UHGV virus genome: UHGV-0127965
Origin: a virus
DNA length: 37,909 bases
Strand: one strand, 5' to 3'
The position numbers and the translations under genes were made by a program. Of this stretch, positions 2,995 to 27,804 are shown piece after piece. Below the pieces are notes generated by a model. It had not been told where the DNA came from. It made no database searches and worked only from the letters and a program-made list of their open reading frames with translations. The stretch's first letter is position 1; each line of letters opens with the position of its first letter.

Positions 2995-3004
2995 TGTAAA
3001 TTCC

Positions 3005-3301
3005 TCAGTCATTACTGATAGCGCCATAGCGTGAGCGGTAATTACGCAGGCGCGGGTCGATATATTCAGGGAAGTGGGTATATGTGGCTTTGCGTAATGG
3101 TCGGATTGATGTTTCGTTTATTCGGTCTTTTTCCTGTTTTTCTGCGAGTTGTATATCGCGTCGGTACTTCCGTTCTGCTTTTGTTTCTGGTGGCAGAGCA
3201 AGAAACGCGCCGAGATTATTCTTGATACTTTCCAGCACCTCCGATACGGAATTGCCGGAACAGCGGCGCGGGTCATCCGCACCATACAGAGGCGCTGGCA
3301 T
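3005..3301 (-). CDS. Hypothetical protein, 98 aa
   Basis: ATG with AGGAG RBS; in the early operon. Confidence 0.5.
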
Positions 3302-3314
3302 GATTTTCTCCTGA

Positions 3315-3794
3315 TTAAATTGCGTGAATAGCGTGACGAGGGAAGGGGAGAGTTACTGGCTCCTCGTCTGGGTAGATAGGTTTGTTATGTTTGTGCCACT
3401 CGACATGACATGACTTGCAGAGCCACATCACATCGGTTGGTTTACTGTAGTCGCAGTGGTGCGCCTGTGGTTTACATTCTGATCCGCAGCACTCACATTG
3501 TGGTGGTCGGATTAGCTTACCGTCGCGCAAAAAATTACCCACAATGATGTGGGCTTTTCTTTTCCATGGGTTGCTCTGAATGAACCGATTTTTGGCTGCG
3601 TTACACCGTTCTCTTCCGCGTTCCGATGATTGATATTCTCTCCTTGCTGATACTCGATGTGGCAATCCAGCGCGTTCTTTGTCGTATTCAGCCAGGCAAG
3701 CCCGGCAAGCGGCAGTTAATCCATCTCTGGATGCTCTTCTGATTTGAAAGTCCCTTTCTTCCTTCTGTTGATGGCATCTTGAGCAGATTTTCAT
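3315..3794 (-). CDS. HNH endonuclease with N-terminal CxxC zinc finger
   Basis: C-terminal CECCG...AHHCDY...WLCKSCHVEWH fits the HNH motif (C-X2-C, HH, C-X2-C-H); AGGAG RBS. Confidence 0.7.
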   Translation of the reverse strand: MKICSRCHQQKEERDFQIRRASRDGLTAACRACLAEYDKERAGLPHRVSARREYQSSERGRERCNAAKNRFIQSNPWKRKAHIIVGNFLRDGKLIRPPQCECCGSECKPQAHHCDYSKPTDVMWLCKSCHVEWHKHNKPIYPDEEPVTLPFPRHAIHAI

Positions 3795-3803
3795 ATTCAG
3801 CTC

Positions 3804-4277
3804 CTAGAACGGAATATCCGAATCGTCGAAGTTCATAGGTGGTTCGCTGTGATCCCCCTGCTGCTGAGGTTGCTGTCTTTGTTGCTGACCGCTATTTCGC
3901 TGAGGAGAAGACTGTTCATTGCCTCCTTGCTTGCCACCAAGCATTTGCATGGTTCCACCAACGCCCACGATGACTTCGGTAGTGAACCGATCCTGTCCGC
4001 TTTGATCCTGCCATTTTCTTGTCCGCAATTTGCCTTCAAGATAAACCTCAGAGCCTTTTCGCAGATATTCGCTGGCAATTTCTGCCAGTTTCCCGCTCAT
4101 TACCACACGGTGCCACTCCGTCTGCTCCTTTTGCTCTCCAGTTTGCTTATCACGCCATTGTTCTGACGTAGCAACTGTAAGGTTTGCAAATGCCGTTCCT
4201 GATGGTGAATATCTGATTTCTGGATCATGCCCAAGGCGACCAATAATGATCACCTTATTTATCCCGCGAGAACTCAT
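3804..4277 (-). CDS. ssb: Single-stranded DNA-binding protein
   Basis: [18 protein letters not shown]-fold N-terminus, Gln/Gly-rich linker and acidic DDSDIPF tail; start taken at the ATG with a GAGGTGGAG RBS rather than the track's upstream GTG. Confidence 0.9.
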
Positions 4278-4741
4278 TTGCTCCACCTCTTGCCAGTTTT
4301 TATGTTGCTTATAATTGATTGAGATACACCCATGTCTTTTGCTATCTTGTACTGACTCTCTTTTTCAGAGAGTCTTTTCCTAATTTCTATAACCTGCCAC
4401 TCTGTTAATTTTGCACCATGATGAGCATGACCTTTTTTGGCTCCACGATGCCTTCCTTTTGCTATCTTGTCGTCCATGTTTTCTTGCGCGCTACCTAAAA
4501 AGAGATGTTCAGGATTAACGCAGCATGGGTTATCGCATTTGTGGCAAACCATCTTCCCAGATGGGATGGGGGAGTGATAAAGCTCAAAAGCAACCCGATG
4601 AGAAAGCATTGTTACGCCAAAGGCTACAAATTTTGTGTATCCTCCTTTGTTTTTTGAATAGGTAGACTCCCAGCAACCTGTTGTTTCATTAACTTTGTAG
4701 CTGGACTCGAATCTTTTAATAATTCCGTCCAAGTGAGACAT
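4274..4741 (-). CDS. HNH homing-type endonuclease (HNH_3-like with C-terminal HTH)
   Basis: [18 protein letters not shown]...N HNH core; abuts the recombinase stop and the ssb start with no intergenic spacer. Confidence 0.75.
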
Positions 4742-5449
4742 TTATGCCGCCTGTTTTAGTTCGTTAACTCTGATGCTCATTACCTGAACGCATTTAGCCT
4801 GCGCCTCCTCGTTGCCAGCCATTAATTGCCAGTCACGCTGATAACGCTCGATGAGTTTTTTCTTGTCAGTTTCTGTTGACGCATAATCGCTGAAGTCTTT
4901 CAGGATTTGTTCGCAGTCAACCGATGGAGATTTCTGGTTGATATTTTCTGGTGATGGTTTGTTATCTGATGCTGGGATTGCCCATCCCGGAAGCGATGGA
5001 GGGAGCCAGTAAAATCCTGTTCCATCTTTCAGTTTTGCCCTGTGCCATCCCTGCTTTTTATCGAGAGATGTTTGTGCGAAACCTTCCTCAAGGTTATACA
5101 GATACCGACCGATTCCCCACTGAACGGCAGCGCGCTTCATTGCACCGGAACGACCACCTTTGACGGCTTCTACCTGCGTGTTTTCAGCAGCATCCCATTT
5201 GGTTACCCATTCGGAATCAATCTTGATTGATATGCCGCATTCAACTCCGCCGTTGTTGGGAATATCGCGGTATTCATTGCGCCATCCTGCTTTGCCGCAA
5301 ACATCGTCCAGGCGTTTCATGATTGCCCGGTTCGTGACATAAGCCAGCACCATAGCCCACACCTTGCCATCGCGTGTTTTACCGCTTTGCTGTATTCGCC
5401 ATTCGATATCTTCAGGGCTGAATGGCTCATCGAATTTATTCAAATCCAT
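4742..5449 (-). CDS. Rad52/22-family single-strand annealing protein (Sak-like recombinase)
   Basis: 235 aa; resembles Rad52-like recombinases of enterobacterial prophages (from memory); sits where lambda bet or P22 erf would be; GAGGTG RBS. Confidence 0.65.
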   Translation of the reverse strand: MDLNKFDEPFSPEDIEWRIQQSGKTRDGKVWAMVLAYVTNRAIMKRLDDVCGKAGWRNEYRDIPNNGGVECGISIKIDSEWVTKWDAAENTQVEAVKGGRSGAMKRAAVQWGIGRYLYNLEEGFAQTSLDKKQGWHRAKLKDGTGFYWLPPSLPGWAIPASDNKPSPENINQKSPSVDCEQILKDFSDYASTETDKKKLIERYQRDWQLMAGNEEAQAKCVQVMSIRVNELKQAA

Positions 5450-5457
5450 AATTCACC

Positions 5458-5646
5458 TCAGAATGGTAATTCGGATGGGGAGGAAAGAAATTCGCGCTCA
5501 TTCATGCGCTCTCTTTGTGCTTGCCATAAACAAAGTTGTTTCTTTGATTTATCTCCCGCTTTACGCCAGTAACGAGCCTCAGCAATGTGATATTCTCTTT
5601 TTAATCGACTTAACTCTGGAGTTTTCGCCAGCTCTACCGGAATCAT
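5458..5646 (-). CDS. Hypothetical small protein, 62 aa
   Basis: ORF whose ATG overlaps the stop of the Kil-like gene; function unknown (positional analogue of P22 arf). Confidence 0.4.
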   Translation of the reverse strand: MIPVELAKTPELSRLKREYHIAEARYWRKAGDKSKKQLCLWQAQRERMNEREFLSSPSELPF

Positions 5647-14639: not shown

Positions 14640-14844
14640 TTACCTGAAATGGTATCTCTGTTACCGCTGGTTAATTAAGTTTGCTGTAAAAGACTGGATG
14701 ACAGCGGATGCCAACAAGCTTAAACAACGAAAGGACTATTACTACGCCAGAATGAAGGAAAACTACTGCTCAATCCGCACTCGCATATTTATTAAAAAAG
14801 ACCTTCAGTCAATTCTTCAATTGCGAGGGAAGGTAAATGGCTAA
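14632..14844 (+). CDS. Hypothetical protein, 70 aa
   Basis: ATGA-coupled ORF between ninF and the YbcO-like gene. Confidence 0.4.
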   Translation: MSDYLKWYLCYRWLIKFAVKDWMTADANKLKQRKDYYYARMKENYCSIRTRIFIKKDLQSILQLRGKVNG

Positions 14845-15127
14845 TCTACGCAAAGAAGCGCGCGGCAGAGAATGCCAGGTACGTATTTACGGCATATGCA
14901 ATGGCAATCCTGAAACTACAGTTCTGGCACATTACCGGATGGCTGGAATTTGCGGAACGGGAATGAAACCTGACGACATGATCGGCGCATGGGCTTGTAG
15001 CGCGTGTCACGATGAAATCGACCGACGCACCCATAATCTCGACAACAAAGACGCCAGACTTTACCACCTCGAAGGCGTGATCAGGACGCAGGCGATACTG
15101 CTGAAGGAGGGGAAGATTAAGTCATGA
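14837..15127 (+). CDS. DUF1364 / YbcO-like protein (putative nuclease)
   Basis: MANLRKEARGRECQVRIYGICNGNPETTVLAHYR... resembles E. coli YbcO of prophage nin regions (from memory). Confidence 0.6.
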   Translation: MANLRKEARGRECQVRIYGICNGNPETTVLAHYRMAGICGTGMKPDDMIGAWACSACHDEIDRRTHNLDNKDARLYHLEGVIRTQAILLKEGKIKS

Positions 15128-15486
15128 ACGAATATCAGTTTGTGCTTCCGTACCCGCCGTCGGTGAACACCTACTGGCGAAGACGGGAAAGCCAATACTA
15201 CATCAGCGATAAAGGCCAGAAATACCGAAAAGACGTTCAGCAAATCATTCGCCAACTCAAGTTAGACATTTTCACCAAATCACGACTCCGCATCAAAGTC
15301 ATCGCAGACGTTCCAGATTCCCGCCGCCGCGACCTCGACAACATCCTGAAAGGTTTACTCGACTCCCTTATCCACGCCGGATTTGCGGAAGACGACGAGC
15401 AATTCGATGACATTCGCGTAATTCGTGGTGTGAAAGTACCAGGCGGACGGCTTGGAATAAAAATCACCGAACTGGAGAACGTATGA
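15124..15486 (+). CDS. rusA: RusA Holliday-junction resolvase
   Basis: 120 aa with the RRRDLDN catalytic motif and overall similarity to RusA. Confidence 0.85.
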   Translation: MNEYQFVLPYPPSVNTYWRRRESQYYISDKGQKYRKDVQQIIRQLKLDIFTKSRLRIKVIADVPDSRRRDLDNILKGLLDSLIHAGFAEDDEQFDDIRVIRGVKVPGGRLGIKITELENV

Positions 15487-18702: not shown

Positions 18703-19197
18703 ATGGATATGGCAGCACCAAAGGGCAACCGATTTTGGGAGGCCCGCAGTAGTCATGGGCGAAACCCTAAATTCGAATCGCCTGAGGCGCTGTGGGCTGC
18801 TTGTTGTGAATACTTCGAGTGGGCTGATGATAACCCGCTATGGGAGGGCAAGGTATTTTCATATCAGGGAGAAATAATTAAGGCTAATGTCCCTAAGATG
18901 CGAGCCATGACTATTTCAGGATTGTGTACCTTCCTTGATATCACCAGGCAAACATGGGGAACCTTCCGGTCAATGGAAGGTTTTTCTGACGTCACATCAC
19001 GAGCGGAAGACATCATCTACGATCAGAAATTCTCTGGCGCAGCCGCTGACCTTCTCAACGCTAACATCATCGCCCGTGATTTGGGCCTCAAAGAGCAGTC
19101 GCAAGTTGAAGACGTGACACCTGATAAGGGAGATCGCGATAAGCGGCGCTCTCGTATCAAGGAGCTATTCAACCGTGGAACTGGACGCGATTCTTGA
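18703..19197 (+). CDS. Terminase small subunit (P22 gp3-like)
   Basis: 164 aa directly upstream of and overlapping the large terminase; the KGNRFWE N-terminus resembles small terminases (from memory). Confidence 0.7.
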
Positions 19198-20674
19198 TAA
19201 CTTGAGCGACGAAGAGCAAATCGAGTTGCTCGAGCTACTCGAAGAAGAAGAGAACTACCGGAACACACACCTGCTATATGAATTTACGCCATACAGCAAA
19301 CAGCGTGAGTTCATCGACGCCGGACATGACTATCCAGAGCGATGTTTTATGGCTGGTAACCAGCTTGGTAAGTCATTTACTGGTGCTGCTGAAGTCGCGT
19401 TTCACCTTACAGGGCGTTATCCGGGCACAAAAGGCTATCCTGCTGATGGTAAATATGGTGGGGAGTGGAAAGGTAAGCGTTTCTATGAGCCTGTTGTCTT
19501 CTGGATTGGTGGCGAGACAAACGAGACTGTAACCAAAACGACTCAACGCATCCTGTGCGGTCGTATCGAAGAGAATGATGAGCCTGGCTACGGTTCCATA
19601 CCGAAAGAAGACATTATTAGCTGGAAGAAGTCTCCTTTCTTTCCGAACCTTGTTGATCACCTTCTGGTTAAGCATCACACGGCTGATGGCGTTGAAGATG
19701 GCATTTCAATCTGCTACTTCAAACCATACTCGCAAGGCCGCGCTCGCTGGCAGGGTGACACAATCCACGGCGTGTGGTTTGACGAAGAGCCACCATACAG
19801 CATTTATGGTGAAGGCCTTACCCGTACCAACAAATACGGGCAATTCTCAATTCTGACGTTTACCCCGCTGATGGGGATGTCTGACGTTGTTACCAAGTTC
19901 CTGAAGAATCCCAGCAAGTCTCAGAAAGTGGTCAACATGACCATCTATGACGCTGAGCACTACACCGACGAACAGAAAGAGCAAATCATCGCATCTTATC
20001 CTGAGCATGAGAGAGAGGCGCGTGCTCGCGGTATTCCTACGATGGGTAGTGGTCGAATCTTCCAGATACCGGAAGAGACTATTAAGTGTCAGCCGTTCGA
20101 GTGTCCTGATCACTTCTACGTAATTGGCGGGATGGATTTCGGATGGGATCACCCACAGGCCCAGGTTCAGCTTTGGTGGGATAAGGACGCAGACACAATC
20201 TACGTTTCACGCGTGTGGAAGGCGAAAGAAAAAACAGCTGTTCAGGCATGGGGAGCTGTTAAATCATGGGCGCATAAAGTGCCAACCGCATGGCCTCATG
20301 ACGGAAACCAGCATGAGAAGGGCGGCGGTGAGCAGCTCAAAGGGCAGTATGCAGATGCTGGATTTATGATGTTGCAGGAGCATGCGACATGGCCTGATGG
20401 CGGTAACGCTGTTGAGCCAGGCATCACTGAATTGCGCGACATGATGCTTGATGGTCGCTTCAAAGTATTCAACACATGTGAGCCATTCTTTGAGGAGTTC
20501 CGCCTCTATCACCGTGATGAAAACGGGAAAATCGTCAAGCTTAACGACGACGTTCTCTCAGCCGTTCGCTATGCATACATGATGCGCCGCTTCGCCAAAA
20601 TGATGCGCGACATCAAAAAACCAAAAGAGAAAAAGATACCAGCCCCAATCAGGCCCATCGCACGGAGAACTTAA
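19175..20674 (+). CDS. Terminase large subunit (P22 gp2-like, GTG start)
   Basis: 499 aa; Walker A GNQLGKS; AGGAG RBS upstream of the GTG; followed directly by portal. Confidence 0.9.
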
Positions 20675-25353: not shown

Positions 25354-25831
25354 TTTAGTTCTTGCGGCATTACGTAAGCTCGGTGTGGCATCAAATGCCA
25401 CGTTAACCGATGTCGAACCGCAGTCTATGGAAGACGGCGTTAACGACCTTGAAATGATGATGGCTGAATGGCTTGGCGGTGATGCGTCACCAGGCATCAA
25501 CGTTGGCTACATTTTCGCTGATGCAGATGTCGCTCCAGATCCTGGCGATGAACACGGTTTATCAAATAACGCTATCAATGCCGTCATTTTCAACCTTGCC
25601 TGCCGCATTGCTCCGGATTATGCGCTGGAAGCGTCTGCAAAACTTATAACCACTGCCAGATACGGGAAAGAGCGACTCGTCAAACTGTCTGCAATGGACA
25701 GAGCAAAAGCCGCAAAATGTAAGTCCGGTTATCCAAACCGTATGCCTGTTGGCAGTGGAAACCAGTTGGCGAAGTGGAACGGTTGGAATTACTTCCACCG
25801 AAAGGAACCTTGCGATAACGGGAGCGAATAA
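25331..25831 (+). CDS. Head completion / tail-hub protein (P22 gp4-like)
   Basis: 166 aa starting [33 protein letters not shown], matching P22 gp4; AGGAGG RBS. Confidence 0.85.
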
Positions 25832-27249
25832 TGCCGATTCAGCAACTTCAGCTTATGAAAGGTGTCGGCAAAGACTTTCGAAACGCCGACTATATCGACT
25901 ATCTGCCAGTGAATATGTTGGCTACACCCAAAGAAATCCTGAACAGCAGCGGATATCTTCGCTCATTCCCGGGCATTGCCAAACGTTCTGATGTGAACGG
26001 CGTATCGCGCGGAGTTGAGTACAACATGGCGCAGAGTGCTGTTTATCGCGTGTGTGGCGGCAAGCTGTACAAAGGAGAAAGTGAAGTCGGTGATGTTGCC
26101 GGAAGTGGTCGTGTATCAATGGCGCATGGTCGGACATCTCAGGCTGTAGGCGTTAATGGCCAACTGGTCGAGTATCGTTATGATGGCACGGTTAAAACAG
26201 TCTCAAACTGGCCTACAGACAGCGGATTCACGCAGTATGAGTTAGGTTCTGTTCGTGACATTACGCGCTTACGCGGGCGTTATGCGTGGTCAAAAGACGG
26301 CACTGATTCATGGTTTATCACTGACCTTGAAGACGAATCGCATCCTGACCGCTACAGCGCACAATATCGCGCAGAATCGCAGCCTGACGGCATCATCGGC
26401 ATCGGAACATGGCGAGACTTCATCGTCTGCTTTGGTTCATCGACGATTGAATATTTTTCCCTGACAGGTGCAACAACTGTTGGTGCTGCTTTGTATGTCG
26501 CACAGCCATCACTGATGGTGCAAAAAGGCATCGCCGGGACTTACTGCAAAACGCCATTCGCTGATTCTTATGCGTTCATCAGCAATCCGGCAACAGGTGC
26601 GCCGTCTGTATACATCATCGGCTCCGGTCAGGTATCACCAATCGCCAGCGCGAGCATTGAGAAAATCCTTCGTTCCTACACTGCTGATGAACTGGCTGAT
26701 GGTGTGATGGAATCGCTGCGATTTGATGCTCATGAGTTGCTGATTATCCATCTTCCGCGTCACGTCCTCGTGTACGACGCATCTTCAAGCGCCAATGGTC
26801 CGCAATGGTGTGTGCTGAAAACAGGACTGTATGATGATGTGTACCGCGCTATCGACTTCATTTACGAAGGCAATCAGATAACGTGCGGCGATAAACTGGA
26901 GTCCGTGACCGGGAAATTGCAATTCGATATATCTTCACAATACGAAAAACAACAAGAGCATATTTTATATTCCCCTCTAATAAAGGCAGATAACGCTTTA
27001 ATAAATGACCTTGAATTAGAAACATCTGGCGGCGTGTGTGATAGAATAGATAAAATATTTATATCAGCCACTACAGATGGAATTAGTTACGGTCGTGAGC
27101 AAATGGTCGTATTACAAAAACCATTTGTATATGACAATCGCGTTTTATGGCGAAAGGTTGGTCGAGTTAGACGCCTCATTGGATTTAAATTCAGAGTTAT
27201 TGCAAAAGGTCCTGTCACATTATCAGGCCTTTCTATTCGTGTAACATAA
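25831..27249 (+). CDS. Tail accessory / head completion protein (P22 gp10-like)
   Basis: 472 aa in the P22 order after gp4; the final 110 codons or so are AT-rich, unlike the rest. Confidence 0.8.
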   Translation: MPIQQLQLMKGVGKDFRNADYIDYLPVNMLATPKEILNSSGYLRSFPGIAKRSDVNGVSRGVEYNMAQSAVYRVCGGKLYKGESEVGDVAGSGRVSMAHGRTSQAVGVNGQLVEYRYDGTVKTVSNWPTDSGFTQYELGSVRDITRLRGRYAWSKDGTDSWFITDLEDESHPDRYSAQYRAESQPDGIIGIGTWRDFIVCFGSSTIEYFSLTGATTVGAALYVAQPSLMVQKGIAGTYCKTPFADSYAFISNPATGAPSVYIIGSGQVSPIASASIEKILRSYTADELADGVMESLRFDAHELLIIHLPRHVLVYDASSSANGPQWCVLKTGLYDDVYRAIDFIYEGNQITCGDKLESVTGKLQFDISSQYEKQQEHILYSPLIKADNALINDLELETSGGVCDRIDKIFISATTDGISYGREQMVVLQKPFVYDNRVLWRKVGRVRRLIGFKFRVIAKGPVTLSGLSIRVT

Positions 27250-27270
27250 ATCGAAACTCAAGGAGTAGAT

Positions 27271-27804
27271 ATGTTAAGTGAAAACGCAAAAGATATCGAA
27301 GGATATGAAGGACTGTACGCCATCACTAATGATGGTAGAGTTTACTCGCATTCAAGAGTAAATTTGAGGGGGCGTCTTATTAAGGGGAGGTGGCTGAAGC
27401 ATAATCATAACGTAAATGGATATAAGTATGTGTGTTTATATAAGGATGGCGTAAAAAAGAACATACTAATACATAAGCTTGTTGCATCTCACTTTGTTGG
27501 TGGATTTGCTGAAGGGTTACAGGTAAATCATATAGATGGTGATAAATATAATAATAACTATCTAAATCTTGAATGGGTTACTCCATCAGGAAACATCTCA
27601 CACTCATATGGATTGGAATCGAGAGGTAATGTAAAAGGAGAAAGGAATGGTAATTCTAAAATATCTAATGATGATGTCATAAAGATAAAAGAAATGGTTG
27701 CCAATGGATTTCCTCAGTGTGAAGTTGCTAAATTATTTGGAATTCACAATTCAAAGGTTAGTAGAATTGTAAATGGCAAGGCATGGAGGCATGTTAATGG
27801 CTGA
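27271..27804 (+). CDS. Free-standing HNH homing endonuclease (NUMOD4-like plus HNH plus C-terminal HTH)
   Basis: [16 protein letters not shown] (NUMOD4-like), HKLVASHF...[24 protein letters not shown] (HNH) and a C-terminal HTH; AT-rich island; AGGAG RBS. Confidence 0.8.

Follow-up and report, generated by a model that had tools for sequence, protein, structure and literature searches.

Endonuclease genes of the seg and mob type in T4-type phages, such as those for SegG and MobE, sit between conserved genes that are left intact, and they are variably present among close relatives. The gene for SegG adjoins the T4 ssb gene 32. Carriers of such genes show silent changes near the insert and carry flanking sequence along with it (PMC2790892, PMC2988022). 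The HEG-islands of Barth, Dunham and Seed (2023) consist of a conserved gene with a homing-type nuclease gene on each side, and which nucleases these are varies between relatives. They were found around genes for polymerase, terminase, nrd and structural proteins of lytic phages, and that paper contains none of the terms 'SSB', 'temperate' and 'lambdoid' (PMC10448857).

Among HNH enzymes, I-HmuI of phage SPO1 is an intron-encoded nicking endonuclease. I-KsaII, which as far as its record shows is named by convention and annotated as 'putative', is intron-encoded within the joined polA gene of Staphylococcus Kayvirus phages. The Gme HNH protein (4h9d) and N.phiGamma are encoded beside cos sites and terminase genes and cut frequent 3-5-bp sites. 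An architecture with an N-terminal zinc ribbon and a [CxxC]2 HNH core was described by Xu and Gupta in 2013 (PMC3592412). In lambdoid phages, a 2025 Genome Research survey of 325 phages distinguishes four types of Rec-module nuclease, HNH among them. Its available text judges the tightly packed HNH gene of ES18 a legitimate and probable module member and cautions that HNH genes are mobile; the same text is silent on an HNH gene between recombinase and ssb, on a recoded patch and on a general link to the SSB tail (PMC12315714).

The window analysed here is the whole of UHGV virus genome UHGV-0127965 (37,909 nt), an Sf6-like (P22-like) temperate E. coli prophage with headful packaging. We consider it likely that its ssb gene stands between two HNH cassettes that are unrelated and were acquired separately, each anchored on one conserved end of the gene, and that HNH-A and a third gene, HNH-C, are homing genes, as ORF-B may be or may recently have been.

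Two HNH genes on either side of ssb

On the minus strand, the gene order is recombinase, HNH-A, ssb, ORF-B and abc2 (Table 1). Positions 3315-4741 extend from the ORF-B stop through the HNH-A start codon. The recombinase is 99% identical to Sf6 gp28, and its TAA (4742-4744) directly abuts the HNH-A ATG (4739-4741) with zero spacer. The HNH-A TGA (4274-4276) and the ssb ATG (4275-4277) overlap as ATGA, and ORF-B begins 9 nt past the ssb stop. The ssb start is taken as the ATG at 4277, as in Sf6 and in the PGAP annotation of E. coli M9; the ORF list had used an upstream GTG at 4286. The encoded protein ends in the canonical ...DSDIPF, followed by TAG, and outside the recoded patch described below the gene is 96-99% identical to the ssb of Sf6 and Bas106.

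Table 1. Features of the recombination module and further nuclease genes in the window.
Feature	Position	Strand	Basis
Rad52-like single-strand annealing protein ('erf', = Sf6 gp28)	4742-5449	-	Pfam Rad52_Rad22 E=5e-26; PHROG 1097
HNH-A, HNH_3 + HTH endonuclease gene, 155 aa	4274-4741	-	Pfam HNH_3
New ssb ribosome-binding region AAGAGGTGGAGCAA, inside HNH-A 3' end	4278-4291	-	read directly
ssb, Sf6 type, 157 aa	3804-4277	-	Pfam SSB E=1e-38
Recoded patch, ssb nt 4-16 (codons 2-6): AGTTCTCGCGGGA vs canonical GCAAGCAGAGGCG	4262-4274	-	
Last five ssb codons TCG GAT ATT CCG TTC, ORF-B-linked version	3807-3821	-	
ORF-B, zinc-ribbon HNH, 159 aa, Sf6 gp26 orthologue	3315-3794	-	
ORF-B N-terminal zinc ribbon (C4, C7, C30, C33)	3690-3794	-	near-invariant cysteines
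ORF-B HNH (beta-beta-alpha-metal) core, CxxC...HHCDY...WLCxxCHxxWH	3387-3509	-	motif + model
ORF-B C-terminal tail EPVTLPFPRHAIHAI, boundary sequence common to both states	3318-3362	-	
abc2 (anti-RecBCD), downstream limit of variable slot	3005-3301	-	Pfam Anti-RecBCD_p2 E=9e-42
YbcO-family putative nuclease, nin region, adjoins RusA	14837-15127	+	
HNH-C, I-HmuI-type (NUMOD4 + HNH_3 + HTH)	27271-27804	+	1u3e match

The first-pass annotation had placed one HNH gene without spacer between the recombinase stop and the ssb start and a second, zinc-finger HNH gene just downstream of ssb; with a late-operon gene, it counted three in a genome of about 38 kb. This description holds throughout: HNH-A is recognized by Pfam HNH_3, ORF-B by its motif, its structural model and Foldseek, and HNH-C is the third. 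Intact homologues of all three are found in many genomes, which, together with the purifying selection on HNH-A, indicates that they are real genes and not chance ORFs.

The three genes are not duplicates that arose within this genome, as they are mutually dissimilar and represent three lineages. A terminase-associated packaging role of the HK97 gp74 type was likewise rejected: none of the three adjoins the terminase genes (18703-20674), and the phage is of the headful type. Nor do HNH-A and ORF-B form an obligate pair, since they occur together in only ~2-3 of ~24-30 HNH-A loci; this rare co-occurrence points to independent acquisition. The order HNH-A, ssb, ORF-B is shared by this prophage and three other loci (L056, L071, L194). 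It has the form of a HEG-island bracket, a likeness that is drawn from the local region only and that differs from HEG-islands in how rarely the two nuclease genes are found together.

HNH-A at the recombinase-ssb junction

HNH-A matches Pfam HNH_3 with 51.0 bits (gathering cutoff 24.8, E=1e-13) and carries a C-terminal HTH. Residues H67, C69, D70, C74, N76, P77, H79 and N88 are invariant. Judged by its substitutions, the gene is under purifying selection, with pN ~0.19 vs pS ~0.8 and every ORF intact. The HNH_3 core and the C-terminal HTH are shared with I-HmuI; NUMOD4 is absent from HNH-A according to Pfam, and a direct sequence search against the I-HmuI structure 1u3e gave no match. A profile of the HNH-A clade searched against the PDB did not reach I-HmuI and returned only HTH proteins and a weak match to I-PpoI, whose zinc loop is weakly resembled by the Cys-rich core. 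HNH-A is 36% identical to one relative of HNH-C. A downstream ssb was sought beside distant HNH-A relatives (38-48% identity) and none has one, as is expected where the clades of a family differ in their targets.

Synteny with relatives lacking HNH-A, a comparison proposed in the first-pass annotation, reveals an uninterrupted junction. Sf6 and Bas106 are 96-97% identical over the region and lack HNH-A, and in both the erf TAA abuts the ssb ATG. HNH-A is a 465-nt insert exactly at this point, with the flanking genes intact. Among 5426 complete E. coli genomes, 40 have the order erf-HNH-ssb and 330 have the uninterrupted erf|ssb junction, giving an occupancy of ~11% of the 370 genomes with the junction, on otherwise identical alleles. 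The gene is thus present or absent at one precise site in near-identical genomes, in the manner of a free-standing homing endonuclease gene. In IMG/VR, relatives of HNH-A (73-100% identity) occur in 30 loci, in all of them between an annealing-protein gene and ssb, and the site is constant even where the neighbouring genes are only 38-72% identical.

The insert appropriates the old translation start of ssb and supplies a new Shine-Dalgarno sequence and ATG. The ribosome-binding region of ssb lies inside the HNH-A 3' end, a layout found in all HNH-A loci. Vibrio phage 1.079.O has a 62%-identical HNH-A homologue before ssb with the same ATGA overlap, preceded by an annealing gene of a different (ERF) family. 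Upstream of this homologue, a remnant ssb start, ATGGCATCACGCGGA (MASRG), is retained.

A recoded flank, which had also been suggested as a sign of invasion, is found as a 13-nt patch at the start of ssb. HNH-A-bearing and HNH-A-less alleles of the same ssb type have 10 differences in nt 4-16 and 0-1 elsewhere (519 nt; P=2e-16). The patch occurs in every HNH-A carrier, a perfect linkage that is physically trivial at a distance of only 3 nt from the insert. The loci of 29 matched viral contigs in IMG/VR contain 28 occurrences of the recoded start, always after the HNH-A 3' end, and the canonical start is found at no fewer than 120 empty junctions, in both ssb allele types. Codon 2 must begin with A because of the ATGA overlap. 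Among the changes, Ser AGC to TCT and Arg AGA to CGC leave the amino acids as they were. The carrier allele therefore differs from the empty allele right beside the insert, as in a target-site polymorphism. A scan of the final 300 nt of the recombinase gene for polymorphisms that track HNH-A found none.

The patch would protect against cleavage by HNH-A or represent an ssb end borne by the cassette; alternatively, it may simply be left over from the ssb allele where the cassette originated. The return to Sf6-type ssb sequence occurs within nt 17-30 here and at ~nt 75 in another locus. As ssb recombinants with other breakpoints exist without HNH-A, these short 'co-conversion tracts' are no more than suggestive.

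Taken together, the precise polymorphic insertion, the recoded flank and the remnant ssb start in the Vibrio phage strongly support invasion by HNH-A as a selfish homing gene, as judged from comparative sequence data. When an HNH-less relative co-infects the same cell, or when prophage and phage meet, HNH-A would nick or cut the relative's un-recoded sequence (~...GGCATAA ATG GCA AGC AGA GGC GTA AAT...). This break would be repaired from the HNH-bearing genome, probably by means of the phage annealing protein and SSB. Such repair would copy the HNH-A gene with the patch, and the patch would render the carrier immune. From the alleles compared here we infer where the enzyme would act, that the patch would confer immunity and which way transfer would run.

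HNH-A resembles the T4-type genes in its position between intact conserved genes, in its variable presence and in the changes beside the insert. Unlike the seg genes, which are GIY-YIG, it combines HNH_3 with an HTH, and its host is a temperate P22-like prophage. A further difference from the T4-type genes is that the probable target abuts the insert and that the cassette gives the target gene a replacement start region. In contrast to the intron-encoded I-HmuI, both HNH-A and HNH-C are free-standing.

It is conceivable that HNH-A was placed by the ordinary mosaic exchange of lambdoid phages, through illegitimate recombination or recombination over short homologies at gene boundaries, as a neutral or mildly useful moron whose nuclease is irrelevant to its spread. 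Lambdoid Rec modules are highly mosaic, many ssb breakpoints are unrelated to HNH-A, and boundary sequences in common do occur in this region. We regard this explanation as very unlikely, as one insertion point has been reused across flanks of 38-72% identity and in a Vibrio phage with another annealing family, the recoded patch is compact and lies on alleles that are otherwise identical, the family consists largely of homing endonucleases, and selection on the nuclease is strongly purifying.

A second proposal assigns HNH-A mainly to phage competition or host takeover, by cutting the ssb of related prophages, of co-infecting phages or even of the host, so that the carrier would gain more than the spread of the gene alone. 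Marker exclusion by free-standing endonucleases beside the T4 ssb gene is established for SegG and gene 32. A susceptible-looking prophage junction is present in the 330 genomes counted above, and the chromosomal ssb1 of E. coli matches the un-recoded 13-nt stretch at 12 of 13 positions; however, the host gene bears no relation to the phage junction in the sequence that precedes its start. Such effects would be a consequence of homing activity and not an alternative to it, and we consider competition or takeover improbable as the function of the gene.

ORF-B and the 3' end of ssb

The C-terminal motif of ORF-B, C100xxC103...H112 H113...C126xxC129 H130...H134, is invariant. Alignment of 39 homologues shows the catalytic and metal-site histidines H112/H113, H130 and H134 to be invariant, as are C100, C103, D115, Y116 and W133 of the core. 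In the structural model, strands at residues 110-113 and 122-125 are followed by a helix at 127-136, which corresponds to a beta-beta-alpha-metal fold; pLDDT drops to 69 at residues 141-150 and to 49 at 151-159. A Foldseek search of BFVD gave 31 matches with E<=1e-3, of which the named ones are mostly HNH, HNHc or EndoVII.

The structural Asn of the H-N-H motif is missing. In nearly all homologues, Asp or Glu is found five residues before C126 (PTDVMWLC or PLEVMWLC). Variants at the Asn position occur within the HNH / His-Me finger superfamily, so that its absence from ORF-B leaves membership possible. The N-terminal zinc ribbon is presumed to be a DNA-binding module, and in PHROG it matches Lar-like and EndoVII-like families at their N-termini. 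Zinc ribbon, HNH motif and Foldseek matches together make the earlier 'zinc-finger HNH' label correct.

Sequence searches of ORF-B against Pfam-A, NCBIfam and the PDB (phmmer and profile) returned zero matches, and PF01844 was detected in 2 of the 39 homologues at E=0.68 only. The sole family match for the protein is PHROG 2340, 'endonuclease'. ORF-B is 35% identical to I-KsaII over 84% of its length (E=3e-20). I-KsaII is encoded in an intron, and ORF-B is free-standing downstream of ssb.

ORF-B is optional. It is present in ~1 in 5 related modules and missing from otherwise near-identical ones. The slot between ssb and abc2 can be empty or can contain ORF-B, a DnaQ-like exonuclease, both, or another HNH_3 gene. 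The end of ssb varies with ORF-B: the ORF-B-type end is found in all 26-29 loci with ORF-B and in 0 of ~100 without it. Alleles without ORF-B read GAY GAT ATM CCC TTT with no stop there, and on one Sf6-type ssb body, the alleles with and without ORF-B differ only in the last 30-40 nt. From the junction sequences, 45 nt of the ORF-B tail are the same as a 15-codon ssb extension in ORF-B-less alleles. It is a possibility that, with gain or loss of ORF-B, the IPF terminus of the phage SSB alternates between being exposed and being masked by an extension of 7-15 residues. In other lineages, the link between ORF-B and the terminal codons is inconsistent.

Comparison of Vibrio K68, which has an ORF-B homologue, with phages 1.213.O and 1.135.O, which do not, indicates that the cassette also replaces the 3' part of ssb; K68 retains a remnant of the old ssb end. 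Duplicated or replaced ssb ends adjoin ORF-B homologues in several lineages. Klebsiella phage VLCpiS13b has a 13-nt duplication at its ssb end, and no ORF-B-less relatives of this phage were found in the collection searched. A remark in the Sf6 GenBank record on 14 residues common to gp26 and E. coli SSB was not reproduced by eye, and it probably belongs to gp27.

Whether ORF-B is selfish or co-opted, the two options offered in the first-pass annotation, has support on both sides. As a selfish gene, it would be a present or recent homing cassette whose target is the 3' end of ssb genes, where the tail is encoded, a reading for which its optional occurrence and its relationship to I-KsaII argue; it may also feed the recombination module through nickase activity. 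The other option is that ORF-B is not selfish and instead serves as an SSB-linked nicking endonuclease for the annealing protein, SSB and Abc2-modified RecBCD, interchangeable with the DnaQ-like exonuclease. The survey counts HNH among the Rec-module nucleases and accepts the ES18 gene, which occupies the same slot in an Sf6/ES18-type arrangement of annealing protein, SSB, HNH and Abc2 (PMC12315714). The ES18 product is labelled 'endonuclease' by PHROG and is presumably an ORF-B homologue.

The placement of ORF-B homologues also favours a role with SSB. They follow ssb in Rad52-like, ERF and Sak4 modules, and an ORF with an IPF tip lies directly upstream of the homologue in 54 of 61 divergent viral loci (~89%; sampled from metagenomes). 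The near-universal adjacency to genes for SSB tails would be just as likely for a partner of SSB, and elsewhere the slot is filled by an exonuclease. The nearest structures are frequent-cutting zinc-ribbon HNH nickases (4h9d), with P1 Ref among the matches, and the domain order matches that of Xu and Gupta (PMC3592412). In contrast to Gme HNH and N.phiGamma, ORF-B lies beside ssb in a headful-packaging phage and has Asp or Glu in place of the canonical Asn.

Against a module function, ORF-B is missing from ~4 in 5 otherwise near-identical modules, and it does not co-diverge with the adjacent SSB (Spearman rho -0.01 for ORF-B and the upstream IPF ORF, 780 pairs). One member of the family is encoded by an intron of a polymerase gene, and ssb ends beside ORF-B are duplicated or replaced as described above. 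ORF-B and the exonuclease are both present in 9 loci, indicating that they are not simple alternatives. On balance, we find this non-selfish, SSB-linked role rather unlikely.

A broader form of this idea, to which we give slightly less credence still, is that ORF-B proteins are specialised, 'SSB-tail-coupled' nicking endonucleases, which would form a fourth and widespread part of phage annealing systems and work with any ...DDIPF-tailed protein. Such coupling would explain the frequent adjacency, the range over Rad52, ERF and Sak4 modules and the lack of co-divergence.

HNH-C and the wider meaning of the bracket

HNH-C has an HNH_3 domain (39.3 bits, cutoff 24.8), NUMOD4 and a C-terminal HTH. 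It matches I-HmuI (PDB 1u3e) over its full length (residues 7-174, E=8e-21) and is of the I-HmuI type. The gene has gp10 (25831-27249) on one side and the tail needle gene (ATG 27797) on the other, in a low-GC region. In other E. coli prophages, the gp10|needle junction is empty or contains one of at least three different HNH genes. The suggestion that the late-operon gene had also invaded is supported by the homology to I-HmuI and by this variable occupancy, which point to HNH-C as a third, I-HmuI-type homing endonuclease gene at a separate hot spot. YbcO is a putative fourth nuclease of the His-Me type and is not an insertion-type gene.

The bracket around ssb would be a clear case, though one with precedents, of selfish 'homing' nucleases within the recombination module of a phage. 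Most work on homing endonucleases concerns large lytic phages, and temperate P22-like prophages provide a clean natural experiment. The HNH-A data would predict a target of ~30 bp. Nuclease cassettes appear to be drawn to ssb at each of its conserved ends, the MASRGVNKV start and the DDDIPF tail. This calls for caution among annotators and designers of recombineering systems, as 'nuclease' genes in Rec modules may be passengers and not parts. If it is true that ORF-B works with SSB, it would be a new and widespread accessory of annealing-protein systems.

Three HNH genes in an Sf6-like genome

The window comes from a prophage or phage of the Sf6-like group (P22-like, Lederbergvirus). Over positions 3000-5500, its identity with Shigella phage Sf6, IME10 and Escherichia phage CurroJimenez_Bas106 (Bas106) is 96-97%, with the exception of one block that is absent from these phages. 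The early-left operon on the minus strand encodes, in reading order, a Rad52-like annealing protein (the recombinase, 'erf' of Sf6), the HNH gene HNH-A, ssb, the zinc-ribbon gene ORF-B and abc2. The HNH-A ATG directly follows the TAA stop of the recombinase, the ssb ATG overlaps the HNH-A stop as ATGA, and 9 nt separate the ssb stop from the ORF-B start. The coordinates and layout of two HNH genes around ssb in the first-pass annotation are accurate in these details, and the third gene it placed in the late operon is HNH-C, of the I-HmuI type.

Features of the window
Feature	Position	Strand	Assignment or context
abc2	3005-3301	-	anti-RecBCD
ORF-B	3315-3794	-	PHROG 2340 'endonuclease'
ssb	3804-4277	-	Pfam SSB
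HNH-A	4274-4741	-	Pfam HNH_3 + HTH
Rad52-like annealing protein	4742-5449	-	Pfam Rad52_Rad22
YbcO-family putative nuclease gene	14837-15127 (region 14837-15486)		nin region, directly upstream of RusA
gp10	25831-27249		
HNH-C	27271-27804		low-GC stretch between gp10 and the needle gene
Needle gene	true ATG 27797		

HNH-A scores 51 bits with Pfam HNH_3, above the threshold of 24.8, and carries a helix-turn-helix at its C-terminus; residues H67, C69, D70, C74, N76, P77, H79 and N88 are invariant in its clade. HNH-C combines NUMOD4, HNH_3 and HTH domains and its whole length aligns with I-HmuI, a homing endonuclease of known structure (E=8e-21). ORF-B has no match in Pfam, NCBIfam or PDB sequence searches, and a Foldseek search of its model against the PDB was uninformative. 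[quoted passage not shown] In the confident AlphaFold model (pLDDT 93), the beta-beta-alpha element falls on this block. Foldseek against predicted viral structures returned 31 matches at E<=1e-3, the named ones being mostly HNH, HNHc or EndoVII. Despite the sequence-search nulls, the motif block, the model and these matches identify ORF-B as an HNH protein, and both genes flanking ssb belong to this class, as had been proposed. Comparison of the three proteins rejected the idea that they are copies of each other. Including YbcO, the genome encodes four His-Me-like proteins and one Holliday-junction resolvase.

HNH-A and the recoded ssb start

In Sf6 and Bas106 the junction is uninterrupted, the ssb ATG following the recombinase TAA directly, while the window holds 465 additional bases there. 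The insert uses the former ssb translation start as its own and terminates in AAGAGGTGGAGCAA-ATG, which provides a new Shine-Dalgarno sequence and start for ssb. Immediately downstream, ssb nt 4-16 (codons 2-6) read AGTTCTCGCGGGA instead of the canonical GCAAGCAGAGGCG. Between the window and Bas106 ssb genes (474 nt), 10 of the 11 differences lie within this 13-nt patch (P=2e-16), and in the other common ssb type the same 10 positions are the sole differences between an HNH+ and an HNH- allele over 519 nt. Multi-base codon switches preserve Ser (AGC to TCT) and Arg (AGA to CGC), and the only two amino-acid replacements are Ala2 to Ser and Val6 to Ile. In codon 2, the ATGA overlap dictates the first base. 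In the last 300 nt of the recombinase gene, no polymorphism was linked to the insert.

HNH-A occurs on three ssb backgrounds. Sf6-type sequence resumes at ssb nt 17-30 in the window and two other loci, and at ~nt 75 in another locus. In a set of 5426 complete E. coli genomes, the recombinase-HNH-ssb arrangement occurs in 40 and the uninterrupted junction in 330. All 30 IMG/VR loci with a 73-100% identical HNH-A protein place it between the annealing-protein gene and ssb, even where the neighbours are just 38-72% identical to those of the window. The recoded start was found 28 times in loci from 29 matched viral contigs, each time with the HNH-A 3' end in front of it; the canonical junction is present in at least 120 contigs, evenly divided between the two main ssb types. 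HNH-A is intact in every copy, and its two E. coli-phage lineages are saturated at silent sites (pS ~0.8) with a conserved protein (pN ~0.19). No close copy is present in a 50,697-genome phage collection, where the best match is a Vibrio phage protein at 62% identity, and none of the distant family members (38-48% identity) lies near ssb.

Vibrio phage 1.079.O carries an ERF-family annealing gene, 71 nt, an HNH-A homologue and ssb, with the same ATGA overlap as the window. Within these 71 nt, ATGGCATCACGCGGA has coding potential for MASRG and resembles a remnant ssb start; the live gene begins MSSRGINKV, as in the window. The remnant and the live start together suggest that the mobile unit comprises the endonuclease gene, the new ribosome-binding site and replacement ssb codons 1-6, and it seems to have inserted at ~ssb nt 15-17. 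By these comparisons, HNH-A is associated with the ssb 5' end, not with the recombinase.

In all features testable from sequence, HNH-A agrees with the free-standing homing endonuclease genes of 'intronless homing'. The enzyme would nick or cut the un-recoded ssb start in HNH-less relatives, and repair of the break from the carrier genome would copy in the cassette; the patch and the insertion itself would protect the carrier. Since the ssb gene of the window equals susceptible alleles from nt 17 on, immunity determinants would lie between the recombinase end and ~ssb nt 16-29. The start of E. coli chromosomal ssb1 (L210 41-70), ATGGCCAGCAGAGGCGTAAAC, matches 12 of 13 positions of the un-recoded patch, the putative HNH-A target; the sequence upstream is unrelated to the phage junction. 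The first-pass annotation had suggested repeated invasion by selfish endonucleases or a co-opted nuclease role and recommended a search for recoded flanks. Its proposal is supported, with the 10 changes beside HNH-A as the key evidence.

ORF-B and the SSB tail

ORF-B is 99% identical to Sf6 gp26. Across ~142 related IMG/VR loci, the ssb-abc2 slot is empty in 56, and holds a DnaQ-like exonuclease in 38, ORF-B in about 20, both in 9 and a different HNH_3 gene in 1. The latter (L112, IMGVR_UViG_2757320832_000001), found with the HNH-A query, has neither ORF-B nor the exonuclease, and the slot therefore accepts further nuclease genes. The DnaQ-like 3'-5' exonuclease (related proteins match Pfam PF16473) occupies the slot most often, at 47 of the ~142 loci (Bas106 example, L002 1819-2367), and may coexist with ORF-B. 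Other E. coli prophages carry a second ORF-B allele, 47% identical, in this slot, in one case alongside HNH-A. Truncated ORF-B/exonuclease and chimeric SSB/ORF-B proteins occur in the protein database (P0011, P0014, P0025, P0051, P0060, P0063). The sequence of Sf6 gp26 does not bear out its GenBank note (NC_005344, Sf6p26) of '14 contiguous amino acids identical to E. coli SSB', which seems to belong to the adjacent ssb gene, gp27.

On the Sf6-type ssb body, ORF-B+ and ORF-B- loci diverge solely in the final 30-40 nt of the gene, where the wobble bases of the Ile, Pro and Phe codons are all changed (ATT CCG TTC with ORF-B, ATM CCC TTT without). ORF-B-less ssb has no stop past IPF and continues for 15 codons, the same 45 nt as the disordered ORF-B tail; the ssb gene of the window has a stop after IPF (3804-3806), and these codons form the ORF-B tail instead (3318-3362). 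Many phage SSB genes likewise run 7-15 residues past the ...DDxIPF tip, with the extension APVTLPFPRHAIHAI at about 95 of 137 Sf6-like loci, APIGLMHNNNLMHCI in one Vibrio phage and SPVGLQYGRHRIYAL in one metagenomic contig (E. coli prophages L075, L045, L074; Vibrio phage 1.079.O, L209; L280, L281, L295, L253, L258, L266). E. coli SSB requires a free C-terminal Phe for partner binding, so such an extension should mask the tail.

The ORF-B family spans 532 phage records and includes I-KsaII, which in Staphylococcus Kayvirus phages is encoded within polA at a group-I-intron position. Homologues lie directly 3' of SSB genes in Vibrio, Klebsiella and Escherichia phages and one Hafnia prophage, in modules with Rad52-like, ERF or Sak4 annealing proteins. 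In a sample of assessable divergent viral contigs (homologues at 30-53% identity), 54 of 61 have an ORF with an SSB-type D-x-IPF end directly upstream, the proteins belonging to unrelated families of about 80 to 423 residues. Over 780 pairs, the similarity of homologues shows no correlation with the similarity of the proteins encoded upstream of them (Spearman rho -0.01). Vibrio phage K68 carries a homologue and retains a remnant of the former ssb end; its relatives 1.213.O and 1.135.O lack the gene and differ in the ssb 3' part. In several Klebsiella-type and Vibrio phage lineages, 13-16 nt of the ssb 3' end are tandemly duplicated between ssb and the homologue (L202 3930-4000, L212 1925-1995, L214 1925-2000, L211 1885-1990); in L202 and L212, the duplication itself makes a stop codon straight after IPF. 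The annotated SSB of Vibrio phage D60 ends in ...DDDRS*, with GACATCCCGTTCTAA (DIPF*) just downstream.

Two compatible readings fit these data. ORF-B may be a nickase acting with SSB-tail proteins, as suggested by the near-universal adjacency to SSB-tail genes, the exonuclease as an alternative occupant of the slot and a structural likeness to frequent-cutting zinc-ribbon nickases (PMC3592412). A Genome Research 2025 survey places the HNH gene of ES18 among probable Rec-module nucleases and cautions that HNH genes are mobile (PMC12315714); the ES18 gene in the ssb-abc2 slot is labelled 'endonuclease' and is a putative ORF-B homologue. ORF-B may also be a homing cassette aimed at the DNA coding for the conserved SSB tail. 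Its optional presence, the altered or duplicated ssb ends, the intron-encoded relative and the absent co-divergence speak for this homing origin, which is slightly favoured overall.

A second hot spot and relation to known systems

A second hot spot is the gp10-needle junction (window 27249-27797; L203, L204, L205). E. coli prophages carry there the I-HmuI-like gene of the window, a NUMOD4 gene 50% identical to it, an unrelated HNH gene of 164 aa, or no gene at all, the gp10 stop then overlapping the needle start. The last gp10 codons vary among these states, and all 52 genomes with the gp10 3'-end version of the window also have the 21-nt spacer preceding the endonuclease gene.

Two nuclease genes bracketing one conserved gene resemble the HEG-island of Barth et al. 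2023 (PMC10448857), work whose coverage lies outside temperate phages and ssb. The proposed HNH-A mechanism is conventional, and the locus is a well-resolved natural example. The general link of the ORF-B family to SSB-tail genes and the SSB tail extensions are worth following up.
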